Assembly: GCA_963666365.2 (NCBI GenBank)
Contig: CAXXNF010000002.1
Span: forward strand, 2,336,001 to 2,400,000
Length of the DNA stretch: 64,000 nt
Source of the DNA: Syntrophales bacterium
GTDB taxonomy: Bacteria > Desulfobacterota > Syntrophia > Syntrophales > UBA2210
Direction of reading: 5' to 3'
The position numbers and the translations under genes are program-made. Shown in pieces: positions 1,501 through 62,147 of this stretch (the first letter of the stretch is position 1; every line of letters begins with the position of its first letter). The notes under the pieces are model-generated. The model was not told the origin of the DNA. It did no database searches and saw nothing but the letters and a program-made list of their open reading frames with translations.

Positions 1501-1552
1501 CTCAAGGGTTCGTCTTTCTTATACTTTCCCGATGAAACAAAAGGAGTGCGCA

Positions 1553-9236: not shown

Positions 9237-11822
9237 TCAGATTTCCCCCACTTTTCGGAGAACGTAGAGGACCTCGGGAAGACCGAGCACGCCGTCTCCG
9301 TTCGCATCGGCGCGCACAGTGAATTCACCTTCATTGACGGGAAGCCGCACGATCAGTCTCATCATGACGATCGCATCGCGCAGGTCCACAACGCCGCTGT
9401 CATCGACATCGCCGACGGGAACCACGTTGCGTATGGTCACGGTCATCTCATCGGAGTCCGACAGCGCGCCTCCCTGGGCGGTGTCGGTCACGGTGAGGCG
9501 CAACGTGACGGTGCCGTCTCCGATCCCCACATGGGGCGCCGTGAAGGTGGGTTTCACCGCTGCCGGATCGGACAGCGTCACTTCCTGCCCGGCAATAAGC
9601 CCGGCAGTGGTTACCACTTCCCACAGATAGGAGGCGATACCGTCGTCTGGATCGGTCGACGCCGATCCGTCGAGGGTCACCAGGGCGCCTTCATTCACGG
9701 TCTGATCCACGCCGGCTCGGGCCGTGGGGGCTTCGTTTATCCAGAGTACCGTTACTGTACAGGTGTCAGTGTCGCGAAGCCCGGGCTCACCGTAATCGGC
9801 GCCTCGGTCCGTCACGGTAAGCTGAAATGTGAGCTCTGCGCCGTCCATACCCACGGCCGGTGCGGTGAAAGTAGGTGTGGCGGCTGCAGGATCGGACAGG
9901 ACCACCGACGGCCCGTCGGTCTGTTCCCAGAGGTAGCTTTTGATGCCGTCGTCGGGATCGCTGGACCCTGATCCGTCAAGCGTCACAAGAGTTCCCTCGT
10001 TCACGGTTTGATCCGTCCCGGCATTGGCCACCGGCGGCAGGTTGGACCAGGTGACGTTGACGATGCAGGTATCCGTCGCGCTCAGCCCCCCTTCGGCACG
10101 ATCGCGCACAGTGAGCCGGAAACTCAGAGAGGCGCCGCCCGGACCAACGTCAGGCGCGGTAAAGGTGGCCACGGCCGAGGTTGCATCGGCAAGCGTCACT
10201 GTGGCTCCGTCAACCTGCTCCCAGCGATAGAAGAGCGTGTCTCCGTCGACATCGGAAGAACCGCTTCCGTCCAGTGTCACCAGGGTTCCTTCGGCCACGG
10301 TCTGGTCATCGCCTGCATGAGCCACCGGCGCATCATTCACGGCGTCGATGGTGACGGTAAACGTGGCGGTGTTGGAATCGACCGTGCCGTCGTTCACTTT
10401 GAAGGTGAAAGTGTCCGTCCCATGCGCATGCAGCGTCGGCGTGTACGTAAAGGCGCCTGTTGAGGTGTTTGTCAGGTTCACCGTCCCGAGCGATGGAGGC
10501 GAAACGATGCTGAAGGTGAGCGTGTCCCCATCCACATCGGACGCCGAAAGCGTCCCGTTGAAAGGCACATCCTCATCGGTCACTGCGCTGCCGTTCTGCG
10601 CCACCGGCGCATCGTTTACCGGGTTGATCGTCACGGTAAAGGTGGCGGTGTTGGAATCGACCGTGCCGTCGTTCACTTTGAAGGTGAATGTGTCCGTCCC
10701 ATGCGCGTTCATCGCCGGGGTGTACGTGAAGGCGCCTGTTGAGGTGTTTGTCAGATTCACCGTCCCGAGCGACGGAGGCGAAACAATGCTGAAGGTGAGC
10801 GTGTCCTCATCCACATCGGACGCCGAAAGCGTCCCGTTGAAAGGCACATCCTCATCGGTGGCGGTGCTGCCGTCCTGCGCCACCGGCGCGTCGTTCACCG
10901 AAGCTACGGTCACGGTGACGACGGCCTCGTTCGAAACGTACCCTGTTGTATCCTTCACCGTGTAGTGAAAGGAATCGGCGCCGTGATAGTTGAGGGCCGG
11001 CGTATAGGTGATGGCGCCGGTCTGACCGTCCACCGCCGTCTGTCCGTGCTGAGGCGCGACCGTGACGGTCACCGTGGCCGGATCGAGGGCGCCGTCCGCA
11101 TCGGTATCGTTGGCCAGGACGTTGACATCCACCGCCGTGTCCTCAGTGGTCTGCGCGGTATCGTTTACTGCCACGGGCGGTGCAATCGTCACTACATCAT
11201 CGATGGTCGCCGTGCTTCCCGTTGCATCGGCTCCCAGAAGGTCAAAATACAGATACAGGGTCACCGCGCCCTCCCCGGTCAGTGTCCCCAGGTCCACGGA
11301 AACCGTTGCCGGCAGGTTATCAGCTGACCAGGCACTGCCGCTCGCAGCGGCGCCGGGCACACTCACCGCCTGGGCGTAGTGAAGTTCTCCCGTCTGTTGG
11401 ACACTGAACAGGGCATCCGTATTAGAAAGGGTCGATATCGGGTCCACCGCCGGCAGCCCCAGTGCCGAATCTTTTAAAAGGGACACCTGAAAGCTGTCCG
11501 GTTCGGTTCCCTCCGCGTTGGCTTTGAGATCCAGGGTTTTCAGGGTAAAAAGAATGTAGCGCACCCCCGCCGGTACGCTAAAGGTCTGCCAGATGCTCGT
11601 GGGATAGGCCGCACCCTCGGTGAGCACCGCAGCACCGGCCGCCACGGTTACATCGCCTTCTAGTTCCCAGCCGAATCCCTCATTCCCGGGAGCAACGGAA
11701 AAATCCCCGTTCACTACTGCGGCAAAAAGCGACAGGGGACAGGACAGCACCCAGAGCATGATCGCCAGCACCAGCCCCATCCGGAAGTTCAGAATTGAAC
11801 ACTCTCTCACCGTTCTCGTCAT
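9237..11822 (-). CDS. Secreted 861-aa protein: signal peptide, N-terminal beta-sandwich, 3 cadherin-like/Big_9 repeats, 3 PKD-like repeats, C-terminal dockerin-like domain
   Basis: Hydrophobic N-terminus MGLVLAIMLWVLSCPLSLFA; repeats PVAVND/VNDAPVAQ..TDED; PVANAGTDQTVNEGTLVTLDGSGSSDPD; C-terminal GDVDDSGVVDLRDAI...DANGDGVLGLPEVLYVL. ATGA overlap with the stop of the giant ORF. Confidence 0.88.
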   Translation of the reverse strand: MTRTVRECSILNFRMGLVLAIMLWVLSCPLSLFAAVVNGDFSVAPGNEGFGWELEGDVTVAAGAAVLTEGAAYPTSIWQTFSVPAGVRYILFTLKTLDLKANAEGTEPDSFQVSLLKDSALGLPAVDPISTLSNTDALFSVQQTGELHYAQAVSVPGAAASGSAWSADNLPATVSVDLGTLTGEGAVTLYLYFDLLGADATGSTATIDDVVTIAPPVAVNDTAQTTEDTAVDVNVLANDTDADGALDPATVTVTVAPQHGQTAVDGQTGAITYTPALNYHGADSFHYTVKDTTGYVSNEAVVTVTVASVNDAPVAQDGSTATDEDVPFNGTLSASDVDEDTLTFSIVSPPSLGTVNLTNTSTGAFTYTPAMNAHGTDTFTFKVNDGTVDSNTATFTVTINPVNDAPVAQNGSAVTDEDVPFNGTLSASDVDGDTLTFSIVSPPSLGTVNLTNTSTGAFTYTPTLHAHGTDTFTFKVNDGTVDSNTATFTVTIDAVNDAPVAHAGDDQTVAEGTLVTLDGSGSSDVDGDTLFYRWEQVDGATVTLADATSAVATFTAPDVGPGGASLSFRLTVRDRAEGGLSATDTCIVNVTWSNLPPVANAGTDQTVNEGTLVTLDGSGSSDPDDGIKSYLWEQTDGPSVVLSDPAAATPTFTAPAVGMDGAELTFQLTVTDRGADYGEPGLRDTDTCTVTVLWINEAPTARAGVDQTVNEGALVTLDGSASTDPDDGIASYLWEVVTTAGLIAGQEVTLSDPAAVKPTFTAPHVGIGDGTVTLRLTVTDTAQGGALSDSDEMTVTIRNVVPVGDVDDSGVVDLRDAIVMMRLIVRLPVNEGEFTVRADANGDGVLGLPEVLYVLRKVGEI
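10341..10898 (-). repeat. Two near-identical 279-bp (93-aa) tandem Ig-like repeat units
   Basis: Units 10620-10898 and 10341-10619; for example gttggaatcg occurs at 10371 and 10650 (offset 279). Confidence 0.92.
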
Positions 11823-14800
11823 ACCACACCCATCAGCACACGCACTACATCCGCATCAAGGACGGAGGGAAGTTTTCGCAGGGACGGCAGAAGCGCCGGA
11901 TTCATAAGGTCTCCCGGATGCGCGAAGGGGCACAGGTGCTCCCGGTCGGCGGTAAGGATAACGCTCAGGCCGTCGCCCACAAAACGCCATGAACCGTCCA
12001 GCATCATCACCGTATGGGCCGCGAACCGGGCGTCATCCCCGTCGATACCCAGGAGGTGTCCCACTTCGTGGGCGAGGAAGGTCAGCAGATCGTATCTGCC
12101 CCAGGCATCCGATCCCTCACTCGCCGTCAGCGCCGTACTTCCCTTTCCGGAGAGAAACTCCTCGTTCGTTTCAGGGGTTGTGTCGACGAACCATCCTGCG
12201 CCGTCGGCGTCCCTGTCCACCGTAATGAGCCCGGTGAGCACGGTCCCGTCGGAGGCCCTTTCGATGACCGTGGCCCTGCCGAGCACCCCGTCGGGCAGGT
12301 CGGCCACGGTTACGGTAATCGCGGGAAGCGTCACGTCTCCGAGCACTGACCGCCACAGATCAAGGGCGGTCTCCGCCAGACGCTGCGCCGACACCTCAAA
12401 ATCTTCAACACTCTCAAAGATTACCGCTGTTTCGGTCACGCCAGTTGAAACCGTTTCCTCGGTCAGCAGCGCACTCCCGCCCCCGACACCGTCCACATAG
12501 AGGGTGTAGCCACTGTTATAGGAGGTGAGGCCCTCGACCACTTCCACCTTCACATAGTAGGCGCCGGGCGTCATATCCTTCAGTGAAATACCGGAGGCGC
12601 CTGCAGTCCCGTCCACAAATCCGACAAGCCTTCCTTCACTATCCATCAGGGAAAGTCGCAGATCGGGATCGGCATCCCTATAGACGACCCTCACCAGATC
12701 CCCGTCACCCCCGGGCACGGCCAGATCGAACCGGAACCAGTCCACATCCCTCCCGTCATGAATCGTAAGGGTCGGGGAGGTATAGTGACCGTCGCTTAGA
12801 GTCACCACGGTCGCCTGGGCATAGCTGTTGTTGGGCTCGTAGGCATCGGGCGCCGGAAGCACCACCGCCACCGTCCGCGCGACATTATCTCTCGTGGTGG
12901 TTTCCACGCCCGCATCCTGGCTCACTACGGCCATCAGGTAATAGAACCCGGGGGCCTGTGAGGACAGATCCAGCTGCGTCGCACCTGCCAGGGTCGCCCC
13001 CGCCGCGCAATCTACCATTGTTTCTGTAACGCCCAGCGAGATGTCCGATCCGGCATCGAAGACATCGTCGACGGAGAGGAAAAATCCGATGGTAAGGGCG
13101 CCGCTCGAAGCAGTCCCGAAATTCGTGACAGTCCAGTCGGCGGTGACCTGGGCGTCGCTTAGGGGCACCATCGTCTTGTCCGCGGAAACCGATACCATGG
13201 CCGGATCGGAACCGGTCACGTCGGGGGTCGTCATATTCATTGTGTAGGCCATGGCACCATCGAAATTACGGACCACCACCCTGTAGAGTCCCGCCTCGAC
13301 GCTGTCCAGGCTGATCTGCGTCACACCGTCGGACGATACCACACCTAAGGCGACAAGACCGCCCTTTGCGTCCACAAGCATCACGAAGGGGGTCCCCTCG
13401 ACCGCACTGTAGGTAACCTCGATGGAGTCGGTTGCCGTGCCGTCGGCCACCATACGGAACAGGTAGGCATCCAGGTCATAGCGGCTGTGGAGTGTCCGTC
13501 CGTTCTGGGTGAAGGCGCCGCGCATCACGCCCAGATCGATGGCGCCGTTCTCATCTTCGTTGTATTCCTCGGGGTCGGGATTGACGGCGAGGATCACCGG
13601 CACCGAAATCGAATTGTTCCGTTCGTTCAGTTCCGTGATCAGGCCTGCGGGGTCCGCCACGGCCTTCACCAGCAGGTCCGCACCATAGGAGCCGGCTGGT
13701 ACCGTCACGTTGAATTCGATTGAAACGGATTCACCGGCACCGATGACGCCGATCATCTGCGTTGGACTGAGGGCGTATTCATCGCCGGTTGCCACATCCA
13801 CGAGGACGAGGCCTACCGTTACCGACCGCGCCGCATCTCCTCCCGGGTTTTTCACAGAGACTGTAATCGGCGCGGCATTTGCGCCGGGAAGCAGTTCCGG
13901 CGGAGCGACAATGTCCTCGATCAGCAGATCGGCTTCGCTGCGGGATACCGACTGCACATAGAGCGTATAATCGAAGGCAGCCTCGTCAACGGGCGACACA
14001 CGGAGGTAGTATCTGCCGGGAGCGAGACCTTCCAGGGAGAGGGTCACCACGCCGTTTATCGCACCGGGCGCCTCATCGAATACCGCGACCCCGTTTACAT
14101 CCCGCAGTTCCGCCAGCAGAAGCCCTTCCAGGAAAAGGCGCTCCACCACCAGCTGGTCGCCGGCGGTGCCGGTTTCCGACAGATAGAAGGTGAACCAGTC
14201 CTCGTCGGCCATGGCGTGCAGGCTGAGGCCGGGAATCGTACGTGCGGTGGTTATACCGCCCAGATCCGTGGCGGTCGCCGCCGTGTCGTTATATTCGAAC
14301 GCATCGGGAGCAAGAGTCACCTCCACAGGCAGCATCGCCTCATTGTCCCTGCGCACCCGTTCGGGCACGATTTCACGCCGGTCGATCAGTGCACCCACGT
14401 ACACCTGTCCTGTCACCATGGCGGGAATCTTCACCCGGAAGGTCGACGACCAGGACTCTCCCGGGGCGAGGGCAGGCACCATGAAGGGGGATACGAGGTT
14501 CCCGTCGCCGAAATCCACCCGGCCGTCGCGGCTCCATACCAGCATGCTTTCCGCGGCAGGCGACGCGGCGTCTCCGGCATTGGTCACGCTCACCGTCACG
14601 TCGAAGTACTGCCCCGTCCGGACCGTCCCGTTCACTGGCCCGCCGGATATCGATGCAACCAGGGCAGCGGCGCTGCTGGTGGGACCGGTGATGGAAAGGT
14701 CATAGCCCGCACCGAGGGGCTCTCCCGACATCATCCCCAGATAGTATTCGCCGGCGGCAAGCCCTTCCAGCGAGAAGGTCAGATGGGTGGAATCGGTCCA

Positions 14801-17800
14801 CGTACCCAGCGCCACCTGGGCGCCTTCCGCATCGAGCAGGAACACGTTTACCGCCGGATCGCTGTAGGCAAAGGCGATGTTCACCGCGTCGGTCTCCCCA
14901 CCCTTTTCAATGGTGCGGAATCGATAGTAGTCGATGTCCCTGTCGTCGGCAAGATTGAGACCGGTCCACGTCTCCGTACCTGCAATCACCCCCAGGTCCG
15001 TGGCGGTAGAGGGATGGTTGTTGTCCTCGAGCGCATCGGCCGTCAGACTTGGATTCGCCGTTATTGCCATTTCGGGACCCCACTCCCATGGAGTGAACCA
15101 CTGGGCGCTCGCCTTCGGATCAAGCAGATTGTCGTGTTTGAGTAATGTCACCTTCACCACCTGTACGGCAACCGCATCACCCAAGAAGGTAAGCTGCCCC
15201 ACGGAGGTGATCTCAAGGGGAACCTTCACGGTAGGAACAATCTCCGCCTGCGTGAGGTTCCATGTGGCCGTGAGGCCCATCTTCACCTCCACTTCAACGC
15301 CGGCACCAAATATCTTGGAGACCGCCTGAACGCCCGCACCGATCTTGAGACCGCCTTCCAGGTTGGCGGTGAAGGTCGCCACATCGGACACGAATTTCCC
15401 TCCGTCGGCGGCCCCTCCGGTAAGTTTGAACTCGAAGCCGAAGGCCACCTTGCCCACAACTTTAAATTCATAAGTCAGGCTTCCTCCGGGCGGCGTAAAA
15501 CCTATTTTGTACTCCGCCTCTATGGGGTTGTCGAATTTCACCGCCAGGGAATACTCGCCCTCCTTCAGCTCGAAAAACTCATTTACCTTGAAAGGTTTCG
15601 CGGTAATCGTCACCTCAATTGCCGGCTTGTACTGCAGAGCTATATTTTTTGTTAAAGTTTTACTGATTCCGCGGTACAGATTGCCAGACTCGTAGCCTTC
15701 CTGGAGACTCCGCATCCAGGCGATTTTATCTTTGAGGTCGAACTTGATCTTCCGGGTCATAGGTTGAGCAAAATTGATCGCTTTCCAAACCAGCAGGCCC
15801 GTACCGGGGATATCGAACCGCTCCGTATAGCCGAAGAGTGTGATCTCCACGCTTGGCCCCGCATCCTGATAAACAATCTCCTTGGAGAGGCTGAAATCGA
15901 TGATCAGATGGCTCCCCACCGTGATCTTCACCAACGTATCTTTGGCCGCAAATTCGGAAGCAATCGTCAACCCCTCCCAGGAATCCTTCCAGTTGACGGC
16001 AGTGGCCTCGTAGGCCCCCAGTTCGGGCAGGAACACGATGGACCGGTCCTGGTTCGGGTCGCTCGTGGGAAGTATCCATTCGGGCTGTGCGATGGACTTT
16101 ATCTGGTACTCCTCGGAGTGGAGCGTCTTACCTTCGCTCAGCAGTGTATACTTCAGCGTCGTGAGATCGGCGGTGAGCAGCTTCATGTCTATGGTAAAGG
16201 TGAAGGACCAGGCGGCGGCGTTCCGTACCGGCGTGATCCCCAGATCCACACCGCCCAGTTCGATTCTCACCGTGTCGGTCTTCCTGAATTCTTCGGGCTG
16301 GACGAAGAGCGTGAAGGTGTTCACCACAGACACGTCGCGGATATACTGGCCGAAGATCTTGGGATCCTTGTCCCCGTCGTAGCTTGCCACCAGGGTGCCG
16401 GTCTTCATTTGGAAGGCGGCATCGTTGTTGGTCTCGATCTGCTCCTCGAAATTTCCGGCGGCGTCAATCTTCACGATCAGGAACCGGTCGTCATAAAGGC
16501 CGAGGGGGGAACTCAGTTTGAGTTCGACGGTGTGGCGCCCTCCGGTGACATACTGTTTGTCGATGGTCCAGACGTAGCTGAGCGCGCCCGGGATCAGGGT
16601 ATCGTCTTCGAACTGGCTGGTCTCGGCCCACCACATCTGGGCGGTCAGGCGCGTGTTGGCGTCGGGTTCCTCCCCGTAGACGGAGAAGGTGAACCGGATC
16701 ACATCCTGAGCGGCGTCACTTACCGCCGTGGACACAAAGACAGCGCTTTCTGCCACGAATTCGGTCGGCCCCATGGGGCTTGCGGCGATACCCGATGGCC
16801 GCGTCTTTTCGAGATCGGTGAACCTTCCCTTGGTGAGGGTCAGGCCCCGAGCCTCCTTCCTCGTGGCGTTTTCCTTCTCAATTTTCGCCTGGGCCTCCGC
16901 ATTGAACACGAAGACGCCGTCCACGAATTTCCCCTGCGAGAAATCGTAACCCGTGGGGTTCACTTCCCCCCTCGCGTAGGCATCGAGGGAAATCTGGATA
17001 TTCGTGCCGTCCTTGCCCGTCACTGAAGCATCCCGCTGCATGGCCTCGGCCACCTGGATCAACTGCTGCACATCGTAGTAGATCACCTCGTTGGTACCCT
17101 TGAAGGTGGCGAAGAGGAACCTGCCGAAGGGATCGATCGCCAGCTGGTCGGCCCATCCCCAGGGAATTTCCTCGGTGGCGCCGATCAGTGTTGCCTTGGC
17201 GGGATCGAGGGGGTTTCGCACCACGCCGACATTGGCGCCCCGGCCGAGATAGGGATCGCGGGTGTAATCGTCCACCGTGCCGTTGAAGGTGCAGTTGGCC
17301 AGCACCAGGGCGTACTCGACGCCGTTATAGCTGTAGAAGATGACATCTTCGATATTGTTGATGTCGAAGTAGGCCCGCGGCCCATTCCAGCTGTAGTACT
17401 GCACATTAGTGATGTTGGTGAAGAACATCGGGTTCAGCAGGGTCATGCCCGCAACGATGGGACTGTCTCTGAGGGCCACAATGCCGTCTTCCATCTGCAC
17501 CCGCTTGGCCAGCGAGGGGACCAGATCCATCTGCACGCGGTGGGAAATGGTCATGTTCCCCTGCAGATCCACGTTGACGATGGTGAGTCCTTCCACATCG
17601 CGTCCGCGCACGGCCACCGCCACCTGGCGGGTATCCTCCCAGGCCTCCAGGCCGAAGGGCTTATAGCCAACCCCCTTCACCTTGAAAGAGAGGTTTTTCG
17701 AGGGATAGGCGTCCGATGTGGGCAGAACGGCGCTGAAGAGCCAGCCCGCTTCGTAGGAGGCATCTCCTCCGGACCAGGGCGCCTTGCCGGGACTTGCCGC

Positions 17801-20800
17801 CAGCAGGATGTTCGGCACGTTCCTGTCTCCCGAGAGCAGCACCGCCACGCCGGTGAGACCCGTCAGCGTTCCCATATTCGGCAGTGTCACCTTGTGGGTG
17901 TAGAGGGATTGCTGGATATAGCTGTCCGTCTTCAGGGAGAACTGGTAGATATAGGGTTTCGCCCGGTCGGTCACGAACACCCGGTCGTAGTATGGATCGA
18001 CGGTGATGTACCAGGGCTGGGCACCCGGGGGCAGTATCAGCCGGTCGATCTCGGGGGTGTCGGGATTGAGATCGATCTCCTTGAGCGATATCACATCGAT
18101 GAAGGACACCGTCCCGTCATAGGAATTCGTAACGATGGCCGTCGTGCCGTCGGGGGTGACGACAATGCCCGAGGGGCCTCCCCCCACGGGGATGCGTACC
18201 TTGCCGGCGCTGGGCATGCCGGCATCGGCCAGCGGGTTAATGACCGTCACGGTGTTTTCCTGCGTATTGGTGACAAACACGTAGGAGGGGGCAAAAATCT
18301 TCGGCTCCGCCGTCATACTGGGAAGCACCCGCTCCACCGGCACGGGATCGGTCCCCCGCTCCCACTGATAGACCGTGACGGTCCGCGTGACCATGATATA
18401 TTTTCCGGAAAGCTGCACGTTGTCCGGCACCAGGGCCTTCACAACACCGCCGTCAAGGGATGCTACGGGCAGTTCGATCCGTTGACCGGGGAGGAGTCCC
18501 TCAGTTTGATGCCGGAAAATGGAATCCGTCAGGATCACCACACGAAGCTTCGACGCATCGTCGCCGAAGAGGGCGCCCTGGATCGTGATGGTCCCCTGCT
18601 GGACGCCGGAGGCGTCGGGTGCATACTCTACCGTGACGTTCGTAACGATAGGCGTATAGTCGTAGTGCTGCGGCTCATCCACCTGGGCGGCCACATTGAA
18701 GAGCGCACCGGGATCAGCCGGCACGGGGTATTCGCCCACCGAGGCGTAGCCGGTATCGGCATCATAGCGGATCACGCGCACGGCCGTCGCCCCTGCCGGC
18801 AGCGGAATGGCATTGTCCCAGACCTGATCGGGGTTGAAATACCAGCGCTGTTTCGCCGTCGATCCTGTCACTACCTCGATGACCGCGTCGTTATAATAGG
18901 GGGTTACCTGGAACAGTGTCACGGCATCGCTGTCGCCGAACATAAAGGTCCCCTCGTCCATCGTCCCAGGATTGGGAGGCGACGTGGTCCGGGCGTATCC
19001 GTCGGAACCGACGATAGCCACATCCACCAGCTCCCAGGTGTCTTCAAACTGTCCCGGCCCCCGCAGGATCTTGGCGGTACGGAACAGGTAGAGTTTGTCG
19101 CCGGGTGATGAACCGGCCGGCGCCGGCACCGTGATCGTAAGCGGCGCCGATGGATTGACCCCGCTCAGGTTGATCGTAAAGGCGCTGACGTAGGTGAATC
19201 CGTCGGGAAGCACCTGCATGCCGGCGTCCGAGCTGGGCACGGTCGTCACGGTCACCGTCTGTCCGTTCATGGTCCCGGGAGGCAGGGACACACTGATATT
19301 GTCGGCGTTGGTCACCACCCCGCCTGAGGCATCGACGGCGCTTCCGCTGGCGGTACTCAGGGCCACCTTGAATTCCAGCTCCTGACGGATGCCGCCGTTG
19401 ATCACCGTGACGGAGGCGTTTCCGAGCTTCACCGCAGTGACGAGACCGTCGGCGGTGACCGTAATGATCGATGAATCGGCGCTGTAGTACCGGGTGCCGC
19501 TCGCGGCGCCGGCCCAGTCGACCAGCGCTCCCGACTGATCGCGCAGGCCGAACATGATCTGACGGATCTCACCCGCAGCGAGCACATAGGCGGCGGGGTA
19601 GATGTTGTAGAGTGACGGCGTTTCACTCTCACCGACCACTATCGCGGCGGCCGCCGTAAGCGTCCCCTTCACGGCCGTCACCACCGTCGTCCCCTCGCCG
19701 AGCGCCCAGACACTGCCCACCTGATTGACCACTGCCACGGCATCGTCCAGGGACGACCAGACGGCGTAGCCGGTGGGCAGCCGCACATAGCCGCCGTCCG
19801 AAAACAGGCCGTAGAGCTTCAGGAACTCCGGTTCGTATACGTCGAGATGCAGCACCGCGTCTTCGGCACGGAATTCAATGCGTTGCAGCTCCGCATCGGA
19901 CAGGGTTACGGTCACGTGGGCGGCGCCGGAACGGGCGCTTCCGTCATCGGCGATAAAGTCGAAGCCCGCACCGGAACCGGCATACCCTTTCTCGGGGGTG
20001 AAATAGACTGTTGTTCCGTCCCCGCCCATCACCACGGTTCCCCGGGTCACATTGGCGATCACGTAGTCAAGCGACGAGCCGTCGGGATCAGTCGCCCAGG
20101 GCGCCAGATTCACCGCGACAGGGATATCCGGATAGGTGGTCGCGGCCCCTGCCGCCGCCGCGGGCGGGCGGTTGGCCGTGAAGCCGAAATTGAGTTCCAT
20201 ATAATAGCGGTCGGTGGCGTCCACGTCGCCGTCACGATCGGCATCGGCGGTGACCCGATAGGCGGCGTCGCCCGCGCTGGAACCCTCGGCCTGGGCGAAG
20301 AGGGCCGTGTCGCTTCCATCGACGAGACCGTCACCGTTCACGTCGCCGGCGGCATACAGGCCGACCGAGTAGAAACCGGCGCCGGCGCCGGATATCGTCA
20401 CCACATAAATACCGGAAGCATCGAGACCGAAGAGCGCCGTCCCGCTGCTGTCTCCGGTGCGCGCCTGCTGTCCCCTCACCCCTTCAATGACCGGCGCGGC
20501 CGGGACAAATCCGCCGGTCCCGGTCACATGGACGCCGAGCACAGCATAGCCCGACACCACGCTCTTCAGTTCATCCGGCGAGAGCACAAAGGCAATGCGC
20601 AGGGTCGCCCCTTCCGCAATCTGCCCCGTGTGGGCGCTGCTGATGGCATCCCGCAGGGGTCCCGCCACGGTATCGATCGTCCGTGTGGCGGTCATGTATC
20701 CGTCAGCGGAATACTCCACCAGGGAATGGGCAGCACCGTTTCCATAGAGTACCGCGGTGAGCAGGTGGGTGTCACCCTGATACTGGTACCAGGCCCTGCT

Positions 20801-34300: not shown

Positions 34301-37300
34301 CATAGCGGTTGTTCGCCTCGTCGCTTTCCGGCACCTGGTTCCAGACATCCACCTGGACGAGAAGTGTGTAGTCGCCTTCAACGGCCCAGGGGATCGTCAC
34401 CGAGGTGTTGCGGGTCACGCTCCCGCTCGCCGCCAGGGCCTGACTCTGGGTAAACGTGCCCACGGTGATATCGTCGTAGTTGCCAAAATAATCGTCCTGG
34501 GACAGCACAGCCCGCTCGTACCAGCCGGTATCGGCCGGGGCCGAGCCCTGGTTGGTGACGGTGTACGAAATCGCGAAGACCTGTCCGTTTTTTACGGTGG
34601 CTTCATGGGTCACTCCCGAAAGCACCAGATCCGGTGCGCTCAGTGCAACCATATGAACCGATGTGTTGTTGTCCTCATCCGCTTCGGGCTGCGACTTGTA
34701 GTGGTCGGTCGCCACAATGACGTACCAGTTCCCGGTGAGACCCCCCGGAATGTTCACCGATTTGGAAACACTGTAGCTCCCTCCCGATGCAAGCGCCGCG
34801 CTTCTCACCACAGTGGCAAGCAGCCGGTCGGCGCCATCCAGTGTGGTGTCGCTGCTGAGAAAGACCGCGTCGGTCCAGCCGGTCGTCGCGGCGCCGGCGC
34901 CGGAATTCGTCACCGTCCAGTCAACCGCAAGGGACTTGCCCGCCGCTGCGGTTGCCGGTACCGTCGCCGCCACCGTGAGATCAGCGGAACGCACTTCCAA
35001 AGCCACCGCCGTCGTGTTGTTGGCGACGTCTGTCTCGCTCTGCTGGCCGTAGGCGTCGGTCACAAAAAGCAGATAGCGGGCGCCGGTGCCGATGGAGGCG
35101 GGAATGGGCACCACGTTTCCGGCGCTTCTGGTGACCGTGTAGACGCCCCCTGCTGCCAGCGCCTCCGTGTTGGATATATTAAAGGATGCAAGAAGCGTAT
35201 CGGCTGAATCGTAGACGGTGTCATCGGACAGAAACACCATATCCCACCAGGACTTGGTGGCGGGGCCGTTACCGTCGTTTTTCACGGTCCAGCTCAGGGC
35301 GATGCGTTCGCCCCAGGAGGCCGATGCCGGCGCTGTCGTCGCCGTGACAATCAGATCCGCCGCGTTGAAGGTGATCGCCTGGGTCTTGACGTTGTTCCCT
35401 TCGTTGGCTTCTACCTGGCCGTTTCCTGCATCGGTCACGAAGATAAGATAGCCGGCGCCGCTGAGCCCGGCGGGGAGGTTCGCCTCGGTGGTCACCGTGT
35501 AGGTTCCCCCGGCCGCTGCGAGGGGGATATGATTCGCCGCCGAGAGGGAAAGCACCAAAATGTCCGTATCGGGATTCCACTGATCGTCCGTCGAGAGATA
35601 GACCCGGTCGTACCAGGTCGCCATGGCTGCCCCGGTTCCCTGGTTCACCACGGTCCAGGAAAGGCTTATGCGCTCGCCCCAGCTCGCCGTGGCCGGTGCG
35701 GTGACGGCCGTAATCTGAAGATCAGGATCACTGATCACCACCTGCCGCACCACGGTGTTGTTGGCGATGCTGGTCTCCCCCTGCACACCGTCACCGTTTA
35801 CCACAAAAATAAAATAGCGTGTACCCACTTCTCCCGCGGGGAGCACCACCTGGCGGCTTCCGGAATAGCTCGCCCCGGCGTTCAGCGGTGTCTGCGCCGA
35901 GATGTATTCGCTTACGAGAAGCCGCGCGCTCTGATCCAGTGTCTGCGATGAAGAGAGGTAGATCCGGTCGTACCAGTCCGCATAGGCGGTGCTGGCACCG
36001 GAATTGGTCACCGTCCAGCCGAGCAGTACCGCCTGACCCACGGCCGCGGTGGCCGGAGCACTTACGGCGACGAGATTCAGATCCGGTGGCTGCTGAATGG
36101 TGATTGCCTGCGCGGTCCCGGCATTGTTCGTCTCATCCGATTCGCTTTGCACCTTTCCGCCGTCGGTCACCACAATCAGGTACTTATAGTCGGTCGCCGA
36201 ATTGGGAAGCGTCACCACGCCCGATCGGGTATAGGTAGCGCCCGCAGCCAGGGGTGAGAACGCCGATGCGCTGAATGAACCCACCAGTTCATCGTCGTTG
36301 GTCAGCGTCTGGTCATAGGACAGATAGACATAGTCGTACCAGTTTCCATAGGCCCCGCCCTGACCAGCATTCGATACGGTCCAGAATACCGTGATCGACT
36401 GCTGCACCGCCGCCTGGGACGGCGCAGTCACGCTGGTGACGGTCAGATCGGGAATTTCTATCGTCAGTGCGGCCGACATGCCCGTGTTGTTCGTCTCATC
36501 GCTTTCCCCCTGTTCGTCATAACCGTCGGCCTTGACAAAGAGATACCAGGTACCCACCGACACCTGGGGCAGTGTGACCATCCGTGTTACCGTATAGGAC
36601 GCGCCCGGGGCCAGGGGGGTCAATGCCGCTACATCCTCGGCATGGACAAAGCGGTCCGTGCCCGTATTGAGCACCGTGTCGGAGGACAGATAGACCAGAT
36701 CGCGCCAGTCGCCGGGGGCTTGTACCGTCGTGCTGGCATTCGTGATGGTCCAGCTGATTTCCACCGCGGCGCCCGGGGCCGCCTTCGAGGGACCGGTCAC
36801 CTGATCCACCCGCAGATCGGGCACCGAAACGGTCAGCATGGCCGGCGCCGTGACATTGTTCCCCTCGTTCGATTCCCCCTGGTTGTTATAGACATCAGCC
36901 GCCACGAACAGATAATAGGTGCCGGCCGCGAGTGCGGGGAGCCTTACCGATTTTATAGTGGTATAGAAGGCGCCGGAGGCCAGCGGGACACGATCCGACG
37001 CGGAAAAGACGCCGATTCTGGTGTCCACCTCGGGATCGAACAGGGTATCCTCGGAGAGATAGACCCCGTCGGACCAGGCCCGGAGCGCCGGGGAAGAACC
37101 GCTGTTAGCCACCTTCCAGGAAAGCTGCAGCGCTTCCGAAGAGGCGGCGGCGGTAGGTACGGCAACCCAGCTGACCACCAGGTCCGGTGCGGTGAGCGTC
37201 AGGGCTACGGCCGTCACGTTATCGTTTTCGCTCGTCTCACCCTGAGTTCTCGAACCGTCAGCCAGAACAAGCAGATAGGACGTCGATGCCGTCCAGGTGG

Positions 37301-40300
37301 AAGGAAGGGCGACCTGGGTCGAAAGCGCCGTGCCGTATGCGGACTGGGCGGCAAGCGGGGTCTGACCCGCCGCCGAGGCGGCGCCCAGGTAAGTGTCGCC
37401 CGGATCAAGGGTCTGATCGACCGACAGATAGAGATAGTCGTTCCAGTCGGCCGCCGCCGGTTCGCTGCCCGAGTTGGTGACCTTCCAGGATATGGTCACG
37501 GTCTCGCCGAGTACGGCGGAGGCGGGCGCGGTGACATCACCGGCAGCGACAATAAGATTGGGTGCCGTCAGCGTGATGGCCGAATAGGCCAGGTTGTTCG
37601 TCTCGTCAGTCTCCCCCTGATAGCCGGAGGCGTCGGCCGCAAAGAGCAGATAGCGGCTCCCGATGCCCGTCTCGGGAAGGAAGAGATCCCTTGTTTCGGT
37701 GTACCCGGCATTCGGCGCCAGCGGCCTCTGCGTGTACGGCGGCACGGTAAAGCTTCCCAGCAGGGTGTCCCCTTCGTCCAGCGCCGTGTCATCGGAGAGA
37801 TAGACACTGTCGTACCACCCCGTGGTGGTGTCATACTGTCCGATATTCTCTACGGTCCAGCTCACCGTGATCGTCTCGCCCAGCACTGCCGACGCGGGGG
37901 CGGTTACCGCGGTCACGTCCAGATCGGGGGCGTTCACCACTATCTGTACGGCATAGGAGTTGTTGGCGTCGTCCACTTCGGCCTGGTAGTTGCTCCCGTC
38001 GGCCTCGAAGATCAGCCACAGCACGCCGACGGAGTCGCCCGGCAGGGACATTGTATAATCGGACACCGTGTAGGAGGCGCCGCCGGCCAGACCGCCGGCA
38101 TTGTTCCGATAGACGCTCCTGAGCCTGGTGTCGAAGGCATCGAGGGTGTTGTCGCTGCTCAGATAGATGTAATCATACCAGCCGGAGGCATTTGCCGATC
38201 CCGTATGGTCGTTGGTGACGGTCCAGGAGACCTGGATGGACTGCCCCGCCGAGGCGGCGGCAGGGACCGTGGGTGCCGTCAGTATTTTCAGATCGGAGTT
38301 TTCAATGGTAATCGACCGCGCGCCGGCATAGGAATTGGCCTCCACGGGATAATTGTTCGTGTTGTCCGACTCACCCTGATTTCCGGTCCCCTGGTTGTAG
38401 GCGTAATCGGTGCAGAACTGGAGCCAGTAGACACTCGTCTGATCGGCAGGGTTGGGGAGTGTGATATTCGGCAGACGCATCTTGCGGGTCACCGTATAGG
38501 AACCCGCGGAGGAGGAGGTCACCCAGGCGGGGGCATACTCGGGGGAGGTGCTGTAGTAGCCGCCGATCATGGACCCGTCGTGACCGCCGGCGGAAGAATC
38601 CGCCGCGATCAGGCCGGCGCCGTCGTCGAATTTCCAGTAGCCTGCCAGACCCGTTTCGGAACCGGAGAGCGTCTGCGACCGGTCGGCCTCGATTTCGGGA
38701 CCGCTTCGGGCACGGTTCCACACCCGCACCTCGTCAATATAGCCATAGAAGTAGTCGGAGCGATCCGCGGGATTGCTGCCGATGACGACGTCCCTGTCGG
38801 CGGTGGCGTACTCGATGGCGCCGGTGGAGAAGGATTCTCCATCCTTATAGAAGGTAATGCCGAAGCCCACCTGGAAGACGGCGGCCAGGTGCTGCCATTT
38901 TCCCACCTCGACGGCAAGCCCCGTGTCTATGCTTTCGATCCCGTTGCAGACATGCCAGGTGTTCCCCTCCTGGAGGATGCTCCATTCCCTCCCATTGTAA
39001 TAATTGGATGTGCTGATCACATACCGCTGTCCCGAACTGCTCAACACCGGGAGGACCCAGGCCTCAAAGGTCGCCCCTGATCCCGCCGAGCTCTGATCGA
39101 TATTGAGTGTGGTTTCCACCCGTCCGTAGCTGCCGGAAAAGAGGAGCGCCGTCTGACCCTCGGACAGGAAAAAGCCCAGGTAGTCCTGCTGGGTGTACCC
39201 TTCATAGTCGGCGCCCCAGGCCTGCTCCTGGGAAAGGAAGATCATATCATACCACTGCCCTGCCGCGGGACCGTCGCCCTGATTTGTCACCGTCCAGGAG
39301 ACATCAATGACACCCTGGGAAGACCCTGAAGAGGGCGCTAAGGTTTCGGTTACCACCAGGTCGGGGGCAGGATTTATAGTGATCGGTATCGCCCGCGTGT
39401 TGTTGCCGCTGTCGGTCTCGCCCTGATAGTCGTAACGATTGGCGACCAGAATCAGGTAGAACTCACCGGGACTGGCCGGGTTGATCCGGAAGGAACCGCT
39501 GTTCGTGTAACTCGCGCCCGGCGCTAATGGAAGCAGATGGGCCGATGAAAAACTCTGCAGGTGGGTGTCGCCGTACTGATCGAAGACGGCGTCCGCAGAG
39601 AGGTACACATAATCATACAGATCGGAAGAGCCGGCCGCATAGGCCCCCTGGTTTTTCACCGTCCAGGAAAGCGTGATCAACTCGCCCCAGGACACCGTTT
39701 CGGGGGCCGTTACCGACGTGATGATCAGATCAGGTCCCTGCACATCGGCGGTCAGGGCCGCCACGTTATCCGTCTCGTTGGTCTCAAGGTAGTACCTGGA
39801 GTAATCGGTTACCACCAGGATATAGTATGACCCGGAGGGCATCGAGGGAATCTTCGCGTTCACGCTCTTCTCATAACTGTCGCCCGGCGCGAAGGGGGCA
39901 CCTTCAGAATAGTAATTGTACGTGGTGGTTAGACGCGTGTCATTATTGTCCCAGACGGCGTCGGTGGAAAGATAGACGGCGTCATAGATATAATACGTAT
40001 AAGAGGTGGAACCGGTGTTGGTCACCGTCCAGTCCACCATCACCTCCATCCCCATGAGCGCCGTGTCCGTTCTGGCCGGTGTGTAGATGATCCGGGCGAG
40101 ACCCTTTCCGGTGTCGTTCGACCGGTACCATGTCGACGGGTCCGAGACACCTACCCTATAGGTCCCGGCAGAAAGGGTGACATTGACCTCGGCGGTCCAG
40201 TCATAGGAACCTTCGCTCACGGCCGTCCAGGCGCCCACGGTCGATCCGTCCTGTCTATAGACGGACAGCGTCACCTGAGGTGCATTGTAGGAATGCCTCG

Positions 40301-42911
40301 TGGTGATCGAAGCAATCGTGGCCTCTTCCGCCAGCGTAAATGTCATAGGAACTGTGGGGGCGGTATAAGAATGAGAATCACCCAAGTTTCCCGTCGTGAC
40401 CGGTGCCGGGGTCCAGGAGGCGCCGCTTATGGTCAGGTTCCCCTCCCCCAGGGTCAGGGCGACGGCACGCACGTTGTTCGCTCTGTTCAGTTCGCTGCCG
40501 CTTGGATTTCCATAATAATCAACTCCCGTCACCACCAGGAGATACTTGTTCCCCGGCAGCGCCGTCGAGGGGATGGTGACGCTTTTTTCGACCTGGTACG
40601 AGGCGCCGGGGCCGAAGGGCGCACTGAATCCCTCGGCATAACTTGCATACTGATATCCCATGCTCGTATCTTCCTGGTCCCAGACCTGATCATCGGAAAG
40701 GTAAAATCTGTCGTACCAATTGGTAGTGAATGTGTTTGCATCACCACTGTTCCTGACCGTGTACGTCACAGTAAGTGAAAGATTATTGCCGCCGACGACA
40801 CTGCGATCCGTGCTAGCAGCGGTCACTTCCAGGTCGGGTGAGGGCATGTCAACAGCCACGGCAGCGACATTGTTGGTTTCCGATCCTTCCACAAGACTGT
40901 TGTTGACATCCGCGACGAACAACAGATAGGCGCCGGTCCGATTCGTGGGCAGCGTGATGCTCATAGTACGGTCGAAGGTGCCGCCCGAATCCAGGGTGCC
41001 GGATTCGTACTTCTCCCAGTAATAGCTGCTGTAATCATCGCTGGAGAGGACGCTGTCATAGGATAGATAGACCTTATCATACCAGTACTGGTAGGTAGCC
41101 CCGTCACCCTGATTGGCCGTCGTCCAGGATACCTGTATGGTTTCGCCGGCCGTCGTCGTGCCGCTGTCGACGGAGGCACCGGTAATCGTAAGATCGGGGG
41201 GAATGAAGTGCACCGATATCGCTTCGGCCCGGACATTGTTCGTTTCACTGCTCTCGGGCTGCAGGCCGGTATAATCGGCCCTGAAGAGCAGGTGCGTCCA
41301 GGCACCGTAGGGAATGGTTACGTTCTGATTGACCGTATAGGATTCACCCGCGGCCAGACCGCCCCGGCGCTCTACTGAGATCAAAAAGGGATCGGCCTCG
41401 TCCCACAGGTTATCGGTAGAGACATAGACCCGGTCCCACCAGCTTGTGATGCCCGCCGCCGCATCGCCCCCATTGGTCACGGTCCATGAAACGTCCACCG
41501 CGGCGCCGGCATCCACCGTTTCCGTGGGGACCGTCGCGGCGCTCACCGTCAAATCGGCCCCAGGAGGCGACACCGTCGCGGGCGCGGCAGCGCTGATATT
41601 GTTCGTGCGGTCCGCCTCCATGGCGCCCGTCGCGGTCGGCGGATTGACAACGGCAAAGAAATTGGTCGATCCGACGGGAACGGCGCTTCCCGGCGCAAAG
41701 GTCACCGTGCCGGACGCATTTCCTCCGGCGGACACAGTGCCGAGACCGTCAATGGGAAACTCACCTACGTAGGTATCGCCGTACTGGTCCCAGGTCTGAT
41801 CGGGCGATGCATAGACGCCGGCATACCATTGGCCGTTCAATCCCGTGGCGTCATCCGGCCCGGCATTCGCCACGGAGAGCGTGGCTGTCACCGGCGAACC
41901 GGAAATCACCTCGGCGGGGACGGTGAAAGAATTCACCGACAGATCGAAATTCGGTTGCAGGGTAATCGTCAGTGTGTAGGCGCCGGTAACACCAGTACCA
42001 AGGCTCGTTGCTCTGGCAACATAATTTACACCTTGTTCTGCGGTGAATATTATCCGTGAATTGAGTCCCTCTCCACTATCGTCGTCTGACTTAATTGAAG
42101 CACCGGTGTCTCCATTCACAAGATAGAGATAGGCGTCGAAATTCGCTACCAGATCGATGGTGATGGGCTGACCCGCCTGAAAGGACACATAGTCGCTCAG
42201 CAGATAGTCATCGTAATACTTCCCTGTGCTCAGGGGGTTATCGGGATCATCGGCCGTGAGTTCCCCTTCGATGACCTCGGTCCCCGCGGCCATCGGCGCC
42301 GCGGCCAGAGGGATCAGTTCCAGCGGCTCACAGACCAACGCGCTTCCGGCATACACCTCTCCGTCACTGCCGTCGGTTTCGGAATTACTGGTAATTTCAA
42401 GGATACCTTGCCCCGAGGGGGGGCTGTGGGGCGCCGTCAGTGTGGCGACCATCATCTCCGTCACGGACACATACCCGGCCGCGGGACGCCCCTGATCGGT
42501 AACAAGCAGATTTTCCTCATGGTTTTCAGTCCCTGGCAGCCCCTCGGCAGTGCTCAAGAACAGGGAAATTTCTTCCGCCGGCAGGCCTTCATCGACCGCT
42601 TCATCCTGTGACGGATCGTCACCACTCGATTCGACTGCGGTCAGAGAAAGGGCGTCCGCGAGGGGAAGTCCTTCAAAAAGGTCTGATGCATAGAGTAAGG
42701 CCGAGGGGGCGGCATCGCCCGTATCGGCAGGGGATTCCACCGTTGTGACGGGCACTTCGATCGGCGATTCCGGTTCCCGCAGGTCAGCATCAAAGGTATC
42801 GGCCACCGCGGCATAGAGGTACGACGCCGCAGGCGCCATATCCGCGGACAAGAGCACCCTGGGTTCAAGCCCCTCGAGCTCAAATCGGTTATGTGGGTCA
42901 CCCTTTGCCAT
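31389..42911 (-). CDS. N-terminal part (3840 aa) of giant extracellular protein: LEPRxLL motif, PPC-like domain, about 26 CARDB-like repeats, inserted LamG domain
   Basis: FELEGLEPRVLLSAD at the N-terminus; repeated PDL.V....P......VSWTV.N.G.....W.D.VYLS.D...E..E.NN; LamG signature FYGYIDEVRVWNRAR...LAGYWKFDDG. The last ~17 residues after the G8 tract do not fit the repeat consensus. Confidence 0.9.
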   Translation of the reverse strand: MAKGDPHNRFELEGLEPRVLLSADMAPAASYLYAAVADTFDADLREPESPIEVPVTTVESPADTGDAAPSALLYASDLFEGLPLADALSLTAVESSGDDPSQDEAVDEGLPAEEISLFLSTAEGLPGTENHEENLLVTDQGRPAAGYVSVTEMMVATLTAPHSPPSGQGILEITSNSETDGSDGEVYAGSALVCEPLELIPLAAAPMAAGTEVIEGELTADDPDNPLSTGKYYDDYLLSDYVSFQAGQPITIDLVANFDAYLYLVNGDTGASIKSDDDSGEGLNSRIIFTAEQGVNYVARATSLGTGVTGAYTLTITLQPNFDLSVNSFTVPAEVISGSPVTATLSVANAGPDDATGLNGQWYAGVYASPDQTWDQYGDTYVGEFPIDGLGTVSAGGNASGTVTFAPGSAVPVGSTNFFAVVNPPTATGAMEADRTNNISAAAPATVSPPGADLTVSAATVPTETVDAGAAVDVSWTVTNGGDAAAGITSWWDRVYVSTDNLWDEADPFLISVERRGGLAAGESYTVNQNVTIPYGAWTHLLFRADYTGLQPESSETNNVRAEAISVHFIPPDLTITGASVDSGTTTAGETIQVSWTTANQGDGATYQYWYDKVYLSYDSVLSSDDYSSYYWEKYESGTLDSGGTFDRTMSITLPTNRTGAYLLFVADVNNSLVEGSETNNVAAVAVDMPSPDLEVTAASTDRSVVGGNNLSLTVTYTVRNSGDANTFTTNWYDRFYLSDDQVWDQEDTSMGYQYASYAEGFSAPFGPGASYQVEKSVTIPSTALPGNKYLLVVTGVDYYGNPSGSELNRANNVRAVALTLGEGNLTISGASWTPAPVTTGNLGDSHSYTAPTVPMTFTLAEEATIASITTRHSYNAPQVTLSVYRQDGSTVGAWTAVSEGSYDWTAEVNVTLSAGTYRVGVSDPSTWYRSNDTGKGLARIIYTPARTDTALMGMEVMVDWTVTNTGSTSYTYYIYDAVYLSTDAVWDNNDTRLTTTYNYYSEGAPFAPGDSYEKSVNAKIPSMPSGSYYILVVTDYSRYYLETNETDNVAALTADVQGPDLIITSVTAPETVSWGELITLSWTVKNQGAYAAGSSDLYDYVYLSADAVFDQYGDTHLQSFSSAHLLPLAPGASYTNSGSFRINPASPGEFYLILVANRYDYQGETDSGNNTRAIPITINPAPDLVVTETLAPSSGSSQGVIDVSWTVTNQGDGPAAGQWYDMIFLSQEQAWGADYEGYTQQDYLGFFLSEGQTALLFSGSYGRVETTLNIDQSSAGSGATFEAWVLPVLSSSGQRYVISTSNYYNGREWSILQEGNTWHVCNGIESIDTGLAVEVGKWQHLAAVFQVGFGITFYKDGESFSTGAIEYATADRDVVIGSNPADRSDYFYGYIDEVRVWNRARSGPEIEADRSQTLSGSETGLAGYWKFDDGAGLIAADSSAGGHDGSMIGGYYSTSPEYAPAWVTSSSAGSYTVTRKMRLPNITLPNPADQTSVYWLQFCTDYAYNQGTGNQGESDNTNNYPVEANSYAGARSITIENSDLKILTAPTVPAAASAGQSIQVSWTVTNDHTGSANASGWYDYIYLSSDNTLDAFDTRLRSVYRNNAGGLAGGASYTVSDYTMSLPGDSVGVLWLIFEADGSNYQAEVDDANNSYAVQIVVNAPDLDVTAVTAPASAVLGETITVSWTVENIGQYDTTTGWYDSVYLSDDTALDEGDTLLGSFTVPPYTQRPLAPNAGYTETRDLFLPETGIGSRYLLFAADASGYQGETDETNNLAYSAITLTAPNLIVAAGDVTAPASAVLGETVTISWKVTNSGSEPAAADWNDYLYLSVDQTLDPGDTYLGAASAAGQTPLAAQSAYGTALSTQVALPSTWTASTSYLLVLADGSRTQGETSENDNVTAVALTLTAPDLVVSWVAVPTAAASSEALQLSWKVANSGSSPALRAWSDGVYLSEDTLFDPEVDTRIGVFSASDRVPLASGAFYTTIKSVRLPALAAGTYYLFVAADVYNNQGESNEGNNVTAPAMLTVSVPDLRVDQVTGPSKAAPGAAVEISWTITNASTTVQAPGDWRDLVYLSSDTVLNTGTDRFVHAEDVAALTPLAPGASYTVTRMVTLPQVSVGTWYLFVKADGYDEQGESDETNNTGMSAALTIEIPDLTVTSVTAPSQAAVQQSITVFWTVSNAGQGGAYGNWYDYVYLSYDQTLTNDDELVGSFSASAFSPLAAGATYTRSGVVTLPNSATDYKYLIVVTDGGKVQSESDETNNAGTAQAITIQQPPDLNLVAVSAPATAAVGQAVLLGWTVTNSGASTAYADWYDRIYLSSSQTLDQSARLLVSEYISAQTPLNAGASYSGSRQVVLPAGEVGTRYFIFVVNGDGVQGETSIANNTVVRQVVISDPDLQITAVTAPATASWGERISLSWTVVNQGTGAAMATWYDRVYLSTDDQWNPDTDILVLSLSAANHIPLAAAGGTYTVTTEANLPAGLSGAGYLIFVTDAGNGQVEANEGNNVKTQAITFNAADLIVTATTAPASASWGERIALSWTVKNDGNGPATKSWWDMVFLSDDTVYDSADTLLASFNISNTEALAAGGVYTVTRSAGNVVPIPASIGTGARYLLFVTDAYGQQSETDVANNTTAVALEVRSADLTVAATVPATAAAGKSLAVDWTVTNSGAGAATTGWTDAVFLSSDTTLDGADRLLATVVRSAALASGGSYSVSKSVNIPGGLTGNWYVIVATDHYKSQPEADEDNNTSVHMVALSAPDLVLSGVTHEATVKNGQVFAISYTVTNQGSAPADTGWYERAVLSQDDYFGNYDDITVGTFTQSQALAASGSVTRNTSVTIPWAVEGDYTLLVQVDVWNQVPESDEANNRYESTVTIEYATPPADLQVDAVTVPATALTGGQIAVAWRVTNHGTAATLATAWWDRVYLSTDAVLDVNSDRNLGTFVHSGSLGSNESYGMAVDIAIPQDLLPLDTDQGTYRILVLTDVYNQVNEPGEEGNNAAASIGAVTITQAPLPDLVVTAVAGPVAVVGQSAAVSWTVENKGQAAAGASWIDRLYLADGQGGETLLGAFTRTETLAVGSTYTRTETVTVPVLPDGQYTWMVRTDAANAVYERGTAEDNNRKDSAPVTLVHGDLQVSSVQAPSDALSGTAVNVTWTVANNGSGPAGPDWIDRIYLSTDASLSAGDVLLGEKVHTGILAATGTYSETLSVTLPNGIEGAYYLLVKTDAAGEIVEGDGLEDDVGVSSVMEVELAPYADLAVSAVAAPQQIIGDPADLTVSWTVANQGTGAGPVDTWTDAVILSRNEVLGDGDDWIVGRFTHSGLMPVGTSYQRSETILLPASTQGRFTLFVVTDIDDAVYEHTGDGANQAGPGYFVDIMLRPYADLTVVSVDVADAVTTGVPFTLSWTVTNSGIGPTSVPEWADAVYLGTTADMAGAKELGRFTHVGNITPDGTYSRTVEITLPLDLVIAEPMTATRYLFVKTAVSGGPYEFIYGASAQSTNNVKVSDPVQVTYTVAPRSDLVVETVTAPESAKDGDAVDITWTVRNEGPSALTGTWVDAIFVAPNGDRSKAVRIGSFTMTQGLGAGLSYTRTENFRLPKYISGVYEVFVRTDVNGAVLDPDRTNNDTAWDSITVQLYERPDLQVTSMTIPATVTAGAVVDVEWVVSNLGDAATPTGGSRWYDGVYLSLDNKLDGGDLQLGWVQNGSALAIGEQYSSYGNWRIPQAAQGLMYIIVKVDASNSVDEFDPVAGENNNTRAQSLTVDAQPVPPPDLVVSNVAGPTEVFDGSQITVYYRVTNKGAGVTFPATWTDSLWLSADKTAPGGEGRLPDRIGDPHGRPRSG
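31445..31452 (-). repeat. G8 homopolymer (C8 on + strand) at the frameshift point of the giant gene
   Basis: Minus strand reads gcg ccG GGG GGG Gag gga aga. With 7 G it reads ...ccg ggg ggg agg gaa gac ttc cgg atc gga tcg gcg acc cac acg ggc gcc ctc gaa gtg ggt gag tac and joins the 6525-aa frame. Confidence 0.9.
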
Positions 42912-62098: not shown

Positions 62099-62147
62099 GT
62101 AGTTTTTCTCCTTGTATGCCGGCGGCATTGATCATTCATATCACTCG

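Follow-up and report, generated by a model that had tools for sequence, protein, structure and literature searches.

A one-base frame break at a G8 run in a giant LEPR-XLL surface protein gene of a Syntrophales bacterium, most likely an assembly error

Two reading frames that meet beside a G8 run

Poly-G phase variation typically affects surface genes, and within the 64,000-nucleotide stretch of Syntrophales DNA analysed here (the window), two very long reading frames meet close to a run of eight G residues. Does this arrangement mark a switch that changes the length of a giant surface protein, or an artefact of assembly within an intact gene? A sequence-only reading of the window had offered both answers. 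A true switch would place contingency loci in the giant genes of uncultured anaerobes; as set out below, the evidence points to an assembly error instead. The features concerned are as follows.

31389..42911, minus strand: ORF1, the 5' part of the giant gene as assembled; 3840 aa from an ATG start, the last 18 residues out of frame
11819..31396, minus strand: ORF2, the 3' part of the giant gene as assembled; 6525 aa from a GTG start
31445..31452, minus strand (C8 on the plus strand): the G8 run where the frame breaks; the organism most likely has G7 here
31512..31607, minus strand: first third of the interrupted CARDB repeat (profile positions 2-33 of 101), just upstream of the break
24030..24037, minus strand: a second G8 run, in frame inside ORF2, which serves as a control; interrupted in L016, the closest homologous locus

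Coordinates and translations bear out the sequence-only description of the junction, in which frames of 3840 and 6525 aa share 8 bp within a single CARDB repeat, with the G8 run at 31445-31452. Translation past this run gives GEGRLPDRIGDPHGRPRSG-stop in the annotated frame and REDFRIGSATHTGALEVGEYYEG in the shifted one. Recalculation with a G7 run returns the single product proposed earlier, 3822 + 16 + 6525 = 10,363 aa and about 1.10 MDa, from a gene of about 31.1 kb. The earlier statement that the second frame lacks an evident ribosome-binding site likewise holds, no Shine-Dalgarno-like motif being visible by eye before the ORF2 GTG. The single sigma70-like promoter match inside ORF2 is not meaningful against an expectation of 0.3 +/- 0.6, and the window has no Rfam matches. 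By the window alone, the extra base could equally sit in the neighbouring GGG or AA; alignment to L016, a 93%-identical relative, places it in the G run. Such runs are common here: the genome holds 75 G or C runs of eight, 34 of which, the second run in ORF2 among them, lie well inside uninterrupted ORFs of at least 200 aa.

Continuity of the gene in relatives and in same-strain sequence

Comparison of the tract among related genomes, a check that the earlier reading had proposed, gave a uniform outcome. Two scans fetched ten homologous loci, nine of them distinct (L018 and L023 are the same), and all nine cross the junction in one frame with a longest G run of 2-3. The genome G104, which is close kin to locus L021, likewise reads straight through, its tract interrupted and its G runs no longer than 3. 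In L016, which shares 92.8% DNA identity with the window over 20 kb, GGA GGA codons interrupt the tract and encode PGGREDFRI, exactly the peptide that a G7 run would give.

Whole-genome searches supply the full-length evidence. Single open frames span 10,766 codons in G041 (locus L022), at least 11,648 codons in G042 (locus L024), where the frame runs off the contig, and 10,399 codons in G104. ORF1 and ORF2 are colinear with all three at 45-55% identity, and in G041 their matches lie exactly 16 residues apart, as expected for the joined product; the contig of G090 begins downstream of the junction and is uninformative there. The nearest named homologs belong to Syntrophus and Zixiibacteriota MAGs (77% and 76%), which makes a syntrophic deltaproteobacterium the probable host, and homologs were found in MAGs of Desulfobacterales, Opitutales, Zixiibacteriota and Rhizobacter. 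Distribution of the giant gene is patchy: with this query it appears in 3 of 301 genomes of the order, the window's own genome (G000) included, and a search of 40 relatives with the junction region returned one weak match (G014) and no match in G001, a genome of the same genus. Breaks do occur in such giant genes, at places other than the junction, as seen in the distant Rhizobacter homolog L018, which has in-frame TAA and TAG stops at L018:4865 and L018:17468 where L019 and L025 are continuous.

The sequence downstream of the break carries no sign of the decay that had been suggested as the mark of a pseudogene. Across its first 3600 codons, ORF2 differs from L016 by 480 synonymous and 156 non-synonymous changes, with no stop. 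Since the last 548 codons upstream of the break differ in a similar way (116 synonymous, 30 non-synonymous), the downstream half shows no decay. Some 5' repeats (window positions about 40500-40700 and 38000-40000) share 45-86% of their amino acids with L016 in places, next to repeats at 98-100%, a pattern that suggests mosaic exchange of N-terminal modules in the giant gene.

Four public sequencing runs are listed for the window, among which X1 holds 99% of its words and may be the source sample itself; the junction lies outside the coverage of X3 and X4. No RNA run is among those listed, which carries no information on expression. Record 1 of X1, a Logan contig, aligns window positions 23600-34624 (11,025 bases) to 11,024 record bases, with no substitutions and one gap. 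Depth of X1 is 4.99 (= 5 x 663/664) in the bin 30904-31567, which holds the tract, and 5 in bins without another contig; because 4.99 in a 664-base bin is the value expected for one missing base, we infer that the gap falls in the bin holding the G8 run. A relative, run X2 (depth 222), omits one base at 31449. Several indels relative to the window are common to X2 and L016, so the two perhaps represent one lineage. As the runs were seen as Logan contigs, which drop rare variants, and X1 has a depth of only 5 and may itself be the source sample, a mixed G7/G8 population in the strain would be compatible with these data.

Indel rate of the assembly and the competing explanations

The window's genome comprises 2 contigs, 4.0 Mb in length and 94% complete, a contiguity that suggests a long-read metagenome assembly, probably of low coverage. 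Homopolymer indels dominate long-read errors, according to the part of PMC12007338 consulted. A scan of 1,345 ORFs drawn from 1.6 Mb of G001 (about 3.5 Mb in total) yielded 789 orthologous genes, 8 of which contain 10 frameshift junctions in the window's assembly (9 in 7 genes once one antisense ORF is dropped). The reciprocal control gave 3 junctions in 728 genes, so that the assembly's rate is only about threefold that of the control. One further junction, in an antisense ORF, came from default tblastn with the first 321 queries, was missed by the faster search and is uncounted. The resulting rate of 0.8-1.1 frameshifts per 100 kb of coding DNA corresponds to a 22-29% chance of at least one in a 31-kb gene. 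Four junctions carry extra bases and five lack bases, most of them in short runs of 2-4; all are junctions in assembled sequence rather than in reads, and some may be true pseudogenes.

A clear case among them is dnaN. This single-copy gene is split by a single-base frameshift near G000:C1 1,308,390, which leaves its C-terminal domain in a separate 250-codon frame, the only copy in the genome; since an essential single-copy gene of this kind cannot be broken, the assembly evidently has indel errors.

Several other breaks were recorded in passing. The ortholog of a G001 surface protein of 2030 aa is interrupted by a frameshift near G000:C2 1,494,291, and gene boundaries there need rechecking. 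Near G000:C1 768,535 and 769,000, two adjacent genes are frameshifted relative to their G001 orthologs; we take these genes to resemble ExeA/GspC of general secretion. An acyl-CoA-ligase-like gene at G000:C2 737,880-739,113 has three breaks, and single breaks relative to G001 orthologs lie near G000:C2 1,016,373 and 1,973,821. The C-terminus of RpoD (window 60341-62128, minus strand) was rejected as another frameshift and is uncounted, as it reads in frame to its stop; only the start of its sigma region 4 is matched, after which the protein diverges in frame.

Taken together, the same-strain contig that is one base shorter, the continuity of all homologs and the genome-wide indel rate indicate that the split is very probably a one-base consensus error in an intact gene for a LEPR-XLL giant surface protein of about 10,363 aa. 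The organism would then carry one uninterrupted gene of about 31.1 kb, and a homopolymer error, made in a low-coverage and probably long-read assembly, would have added a surplus G to a G7 run in the window consensus. Between the two answers offered at the outset, it is the artefact, with one giant gene, that finds support, and the phase-variation switch that does not. The gene should accordingly be annotated as a single protein of about 10.4k aa. Since coding DNA in this assembly carries about one frameshift in every 100 kb, other reports of split genes in it call for a check.

The same observations bear on three competing accounts. In the best placed of these, which we nonetheless consider unlikely, slippage is real but incidental: synonymous changes would have produced a pure G7 run, some cells would carry G8 and make a truncated CARDB stalk, and the assembler would have chosen the G8 allele. 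L016 has an interrupted tract where this strain has a pure run, which means that slippage could be particular to the strain, and contigs cannot show rare variants; a streptococcal mga gene offers a precedent in a C8-to-C7 change described, in the portion of PMC11868660 at hand, as real but of low frequency and rarely reverting. Against this account, the only same-strain contig carries the shorter form, the mismatch-repair genes mutS and mutL are intact in the genome, and the assembly contains other single-base frameshifts, that of dnaN included. A more specific form is a shade more doubtful: interrupted glycine codons would recently have become an uninterrupted G7/G8 run prone to slippage in vivo, whereby a sub-population would make a 3.8k-aa CARDB stalk free of the distal modules. 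Were it true, an environmental anaerobe would here be acquiring a phase-variable switch of length in its 1.1-MDa LEPR-XLL surface protein.

An evolved switch between a stalk of 3.8k aa and the complete 1.1 MDa protein is very improbable. The locus does resemble the poly-G contingency loci of Neisseria and Campylobacter in having an intragenic G run and a frameshift in a surface gene; the tract lies after most of the CARDB repeats, and the N-terminal export motif might still export a truncated product. Contingency loci, however, have G runs of at least 9, whereas the present run, known from assembled sequence, has 7-8 residues (G8 assembled, probably G7) and falls below G9, our working cut-off and the minimum that PhasomeIt requires for phase-variable tracts in Neisseria, as given in the available text of PMC5953494. 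Nor is the tract kept and varying among relatives, being present in none of the nine homologous loci and not in G104, and the break cuts through a domain about 11.5 kb from the start of the gene, in a genome that encodes both MutS and MutL.

Least probable of all is a frameshift that became fixed recently, giving a young pseudogene, or else a fixed G8 with programmed slippage, be it ribosomal or transcriptional: the window consensus is G8 and decay would be absent after a very recent mutation, but the same-strain contig is shorter by one base, relatives conserve neither the sequence nor a slippery motif, and change in ORF2 is mostly synonymous.

Architecture, partner and export of the giant protein

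Read as one product, as the assembly-error explanation implies, the giant protein begins with a LEPR-XLL motif and continues through a succession of extracellular repeat domains. Its mapped features, and the partner gene downstream, are as follows.

42825..42884, minus strand: LEPR-XLL motif (NF012209 LEPR-8K; LEPRVLLS), residues 10-29
38691..39095, minus strand: Laminin_G_3/ConA-like domain, residues 1273-1407
25535..25942, minus strand: SGL-like beta-propeller match from the domain search
20813..20908, minus strand: single RHS/YD repeat match from the domain search
20207..20350, minus strand: Dockerin_1 domain from the domain search
15077..16429, minus strand: variable beta-rich domain of about 450 aa, the most variable part among homologs
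12056..12070, minus strand: HEXXH motif (HEVGH), matrixin-like only below threshold
9237..11822, minus strand: downstream partner gene, 861 aa, overlapping the ORF2 stop by 4 bp

The NF012209 profile scores 23.3 bits against the whole of ORF1 and 27.3 bits against its first 300 aa, relative to a cut-off of 17; the motif is also found in G041 and G042 and is visible in G104. With a motif above the cut-off at the N-terminus, giant size and extracellular repeat domains, the protein belongs among the LEPR-XLL giants. ORF1 consists of the LEPR-XLL leader, about 20 CARDB repeats and one LamG domain; the earlier description of it as a CARDB-only stalk thus has to be amended for both the leader motif and the Laminin_G_3 domain. 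ORF2 runs from further CARDB repeats through PPC-like and DUF7619 regions, an SGL-like propeller and a He_PIG/Big_9/cadherin Ig stalk to the RHS repeat, dockerin, Big_2, a YncE-like propeller, the variable beta-rich domain, PPC-like/CARDB repeats and the HEXXH region.

The suggestion that the distal part carries effector-like modules proved overstated. The search gave a single RHS repeat, a DUF6531 match below threshold and no RHS-associated core, so that the protein lacks the make-up of an RHS/YD polymorphic toxin, and searches of Pfam and NCBIfam found no toxin domain. The HEVGH region matches Peptidase_M10 at E=0.042, below the cut-off, and is absent from the G104 homolog. For the variable domain, no Pfam family was matched, Atlas matches reached at most 0.85 and 8 homologs were found; its single-sequence model has a pLDDT of 35. 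Unrelated CARDB, dockerin and T9SS-tail proteins (P0003-P0006) contain the same domain as well. A T9SS tail (TIGR04183) in the giant protein itself was rejected, as the match is internal and no stretch passes alone. The most likely role is that of a long surface stalk or adhesin displaying binding modules, in which about 30 CARDB/Ig repeats would be followed by beta-propellers, a cadherin/Ig rod, the dockerin and variable distal modules.

The 861-aa partner has a signal-peptide-like N-terminus, Big_9/cadherin/PKD repeats and a C-terminal dockerin, and homologs of it follow the giant gene in G041 (a 1995-codon frame) and G104 (794). Dockerins occur on both proteins, and the giant protein may work together with this co-encoded Ig/dockerin partner. 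Export would probably proceed without a Sec signal through a cassette of OEP, HlyD, M50 and secondary SecA proteins, a proposal based on co-occurrence: in G000:C1, a row of genes for OEP, HlyD, GAF-HlyD, M50 and SecA_DEAD immediately precedes another LEPR-XLL gene, on the other contig and away from the giant gene studied here, and G041, G042, G104 and G001 likewise have a short second SecA_DEAD frame. The cassette matches the secondary SecA_DEAD and type I secretion-like locus of Kamneva et al. 2015 (PMC4452313), as far as the text seen goes; that text names no such substrate.

Among known systems, the LEPR-XLL giants (NF012209) share with this protein the N-terminal motif, the giant size and the extracellular Ig-like repeats. 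The sections seen of PMC10868602 mention a Vibrio example of about 8000 aa; it has an RTX/serralysin tail, whereas the present protein has a CARDB-dominated stalk, propellers, a short YD stretch and a dockerin. A literature search for LEPR-XLL, CARDB and giant proteins, covering main texts, found no paper on this CARDB-dominated subfamily, and the portions of PMC10868602 and PMC9611531 seen make passing mentions only. The dockerin-type giants of Omnitrophota (bioRxiv 10.1101/2023.11.21.568195) likewise combine giant extracellular repeats with dockerin and, in the part of that preprint consulted, are proposed to act in attachment. Unlike the present protein, they are described there as having many dockerin/TSP3 repeats, C-terminal membrane and SecA parts and at least 30,000 aa, and a term search for CARDB or LEPR found no mention in the preprint or in PMC11573180. 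The giant protein is a new representative of a known but barely studied LEPR-XLL class.

Other large genes accompany it in the genome. Giant open frames of 9223, 7438 and 9652 codons, one of which has a LEPR-XLL motif, cluster at G000:C2 3,050-93,700, and a third LEPR-XLL gene lies at G000:C1 10,792, beside the secondary SecA cassette. At window positions 1490-2908, on the plus strand, a 472-aa frame encodes a two-domain hexokinase (Pfam Hexokinase_1 and Hexokinase_2), a family better known from eukaryotes.
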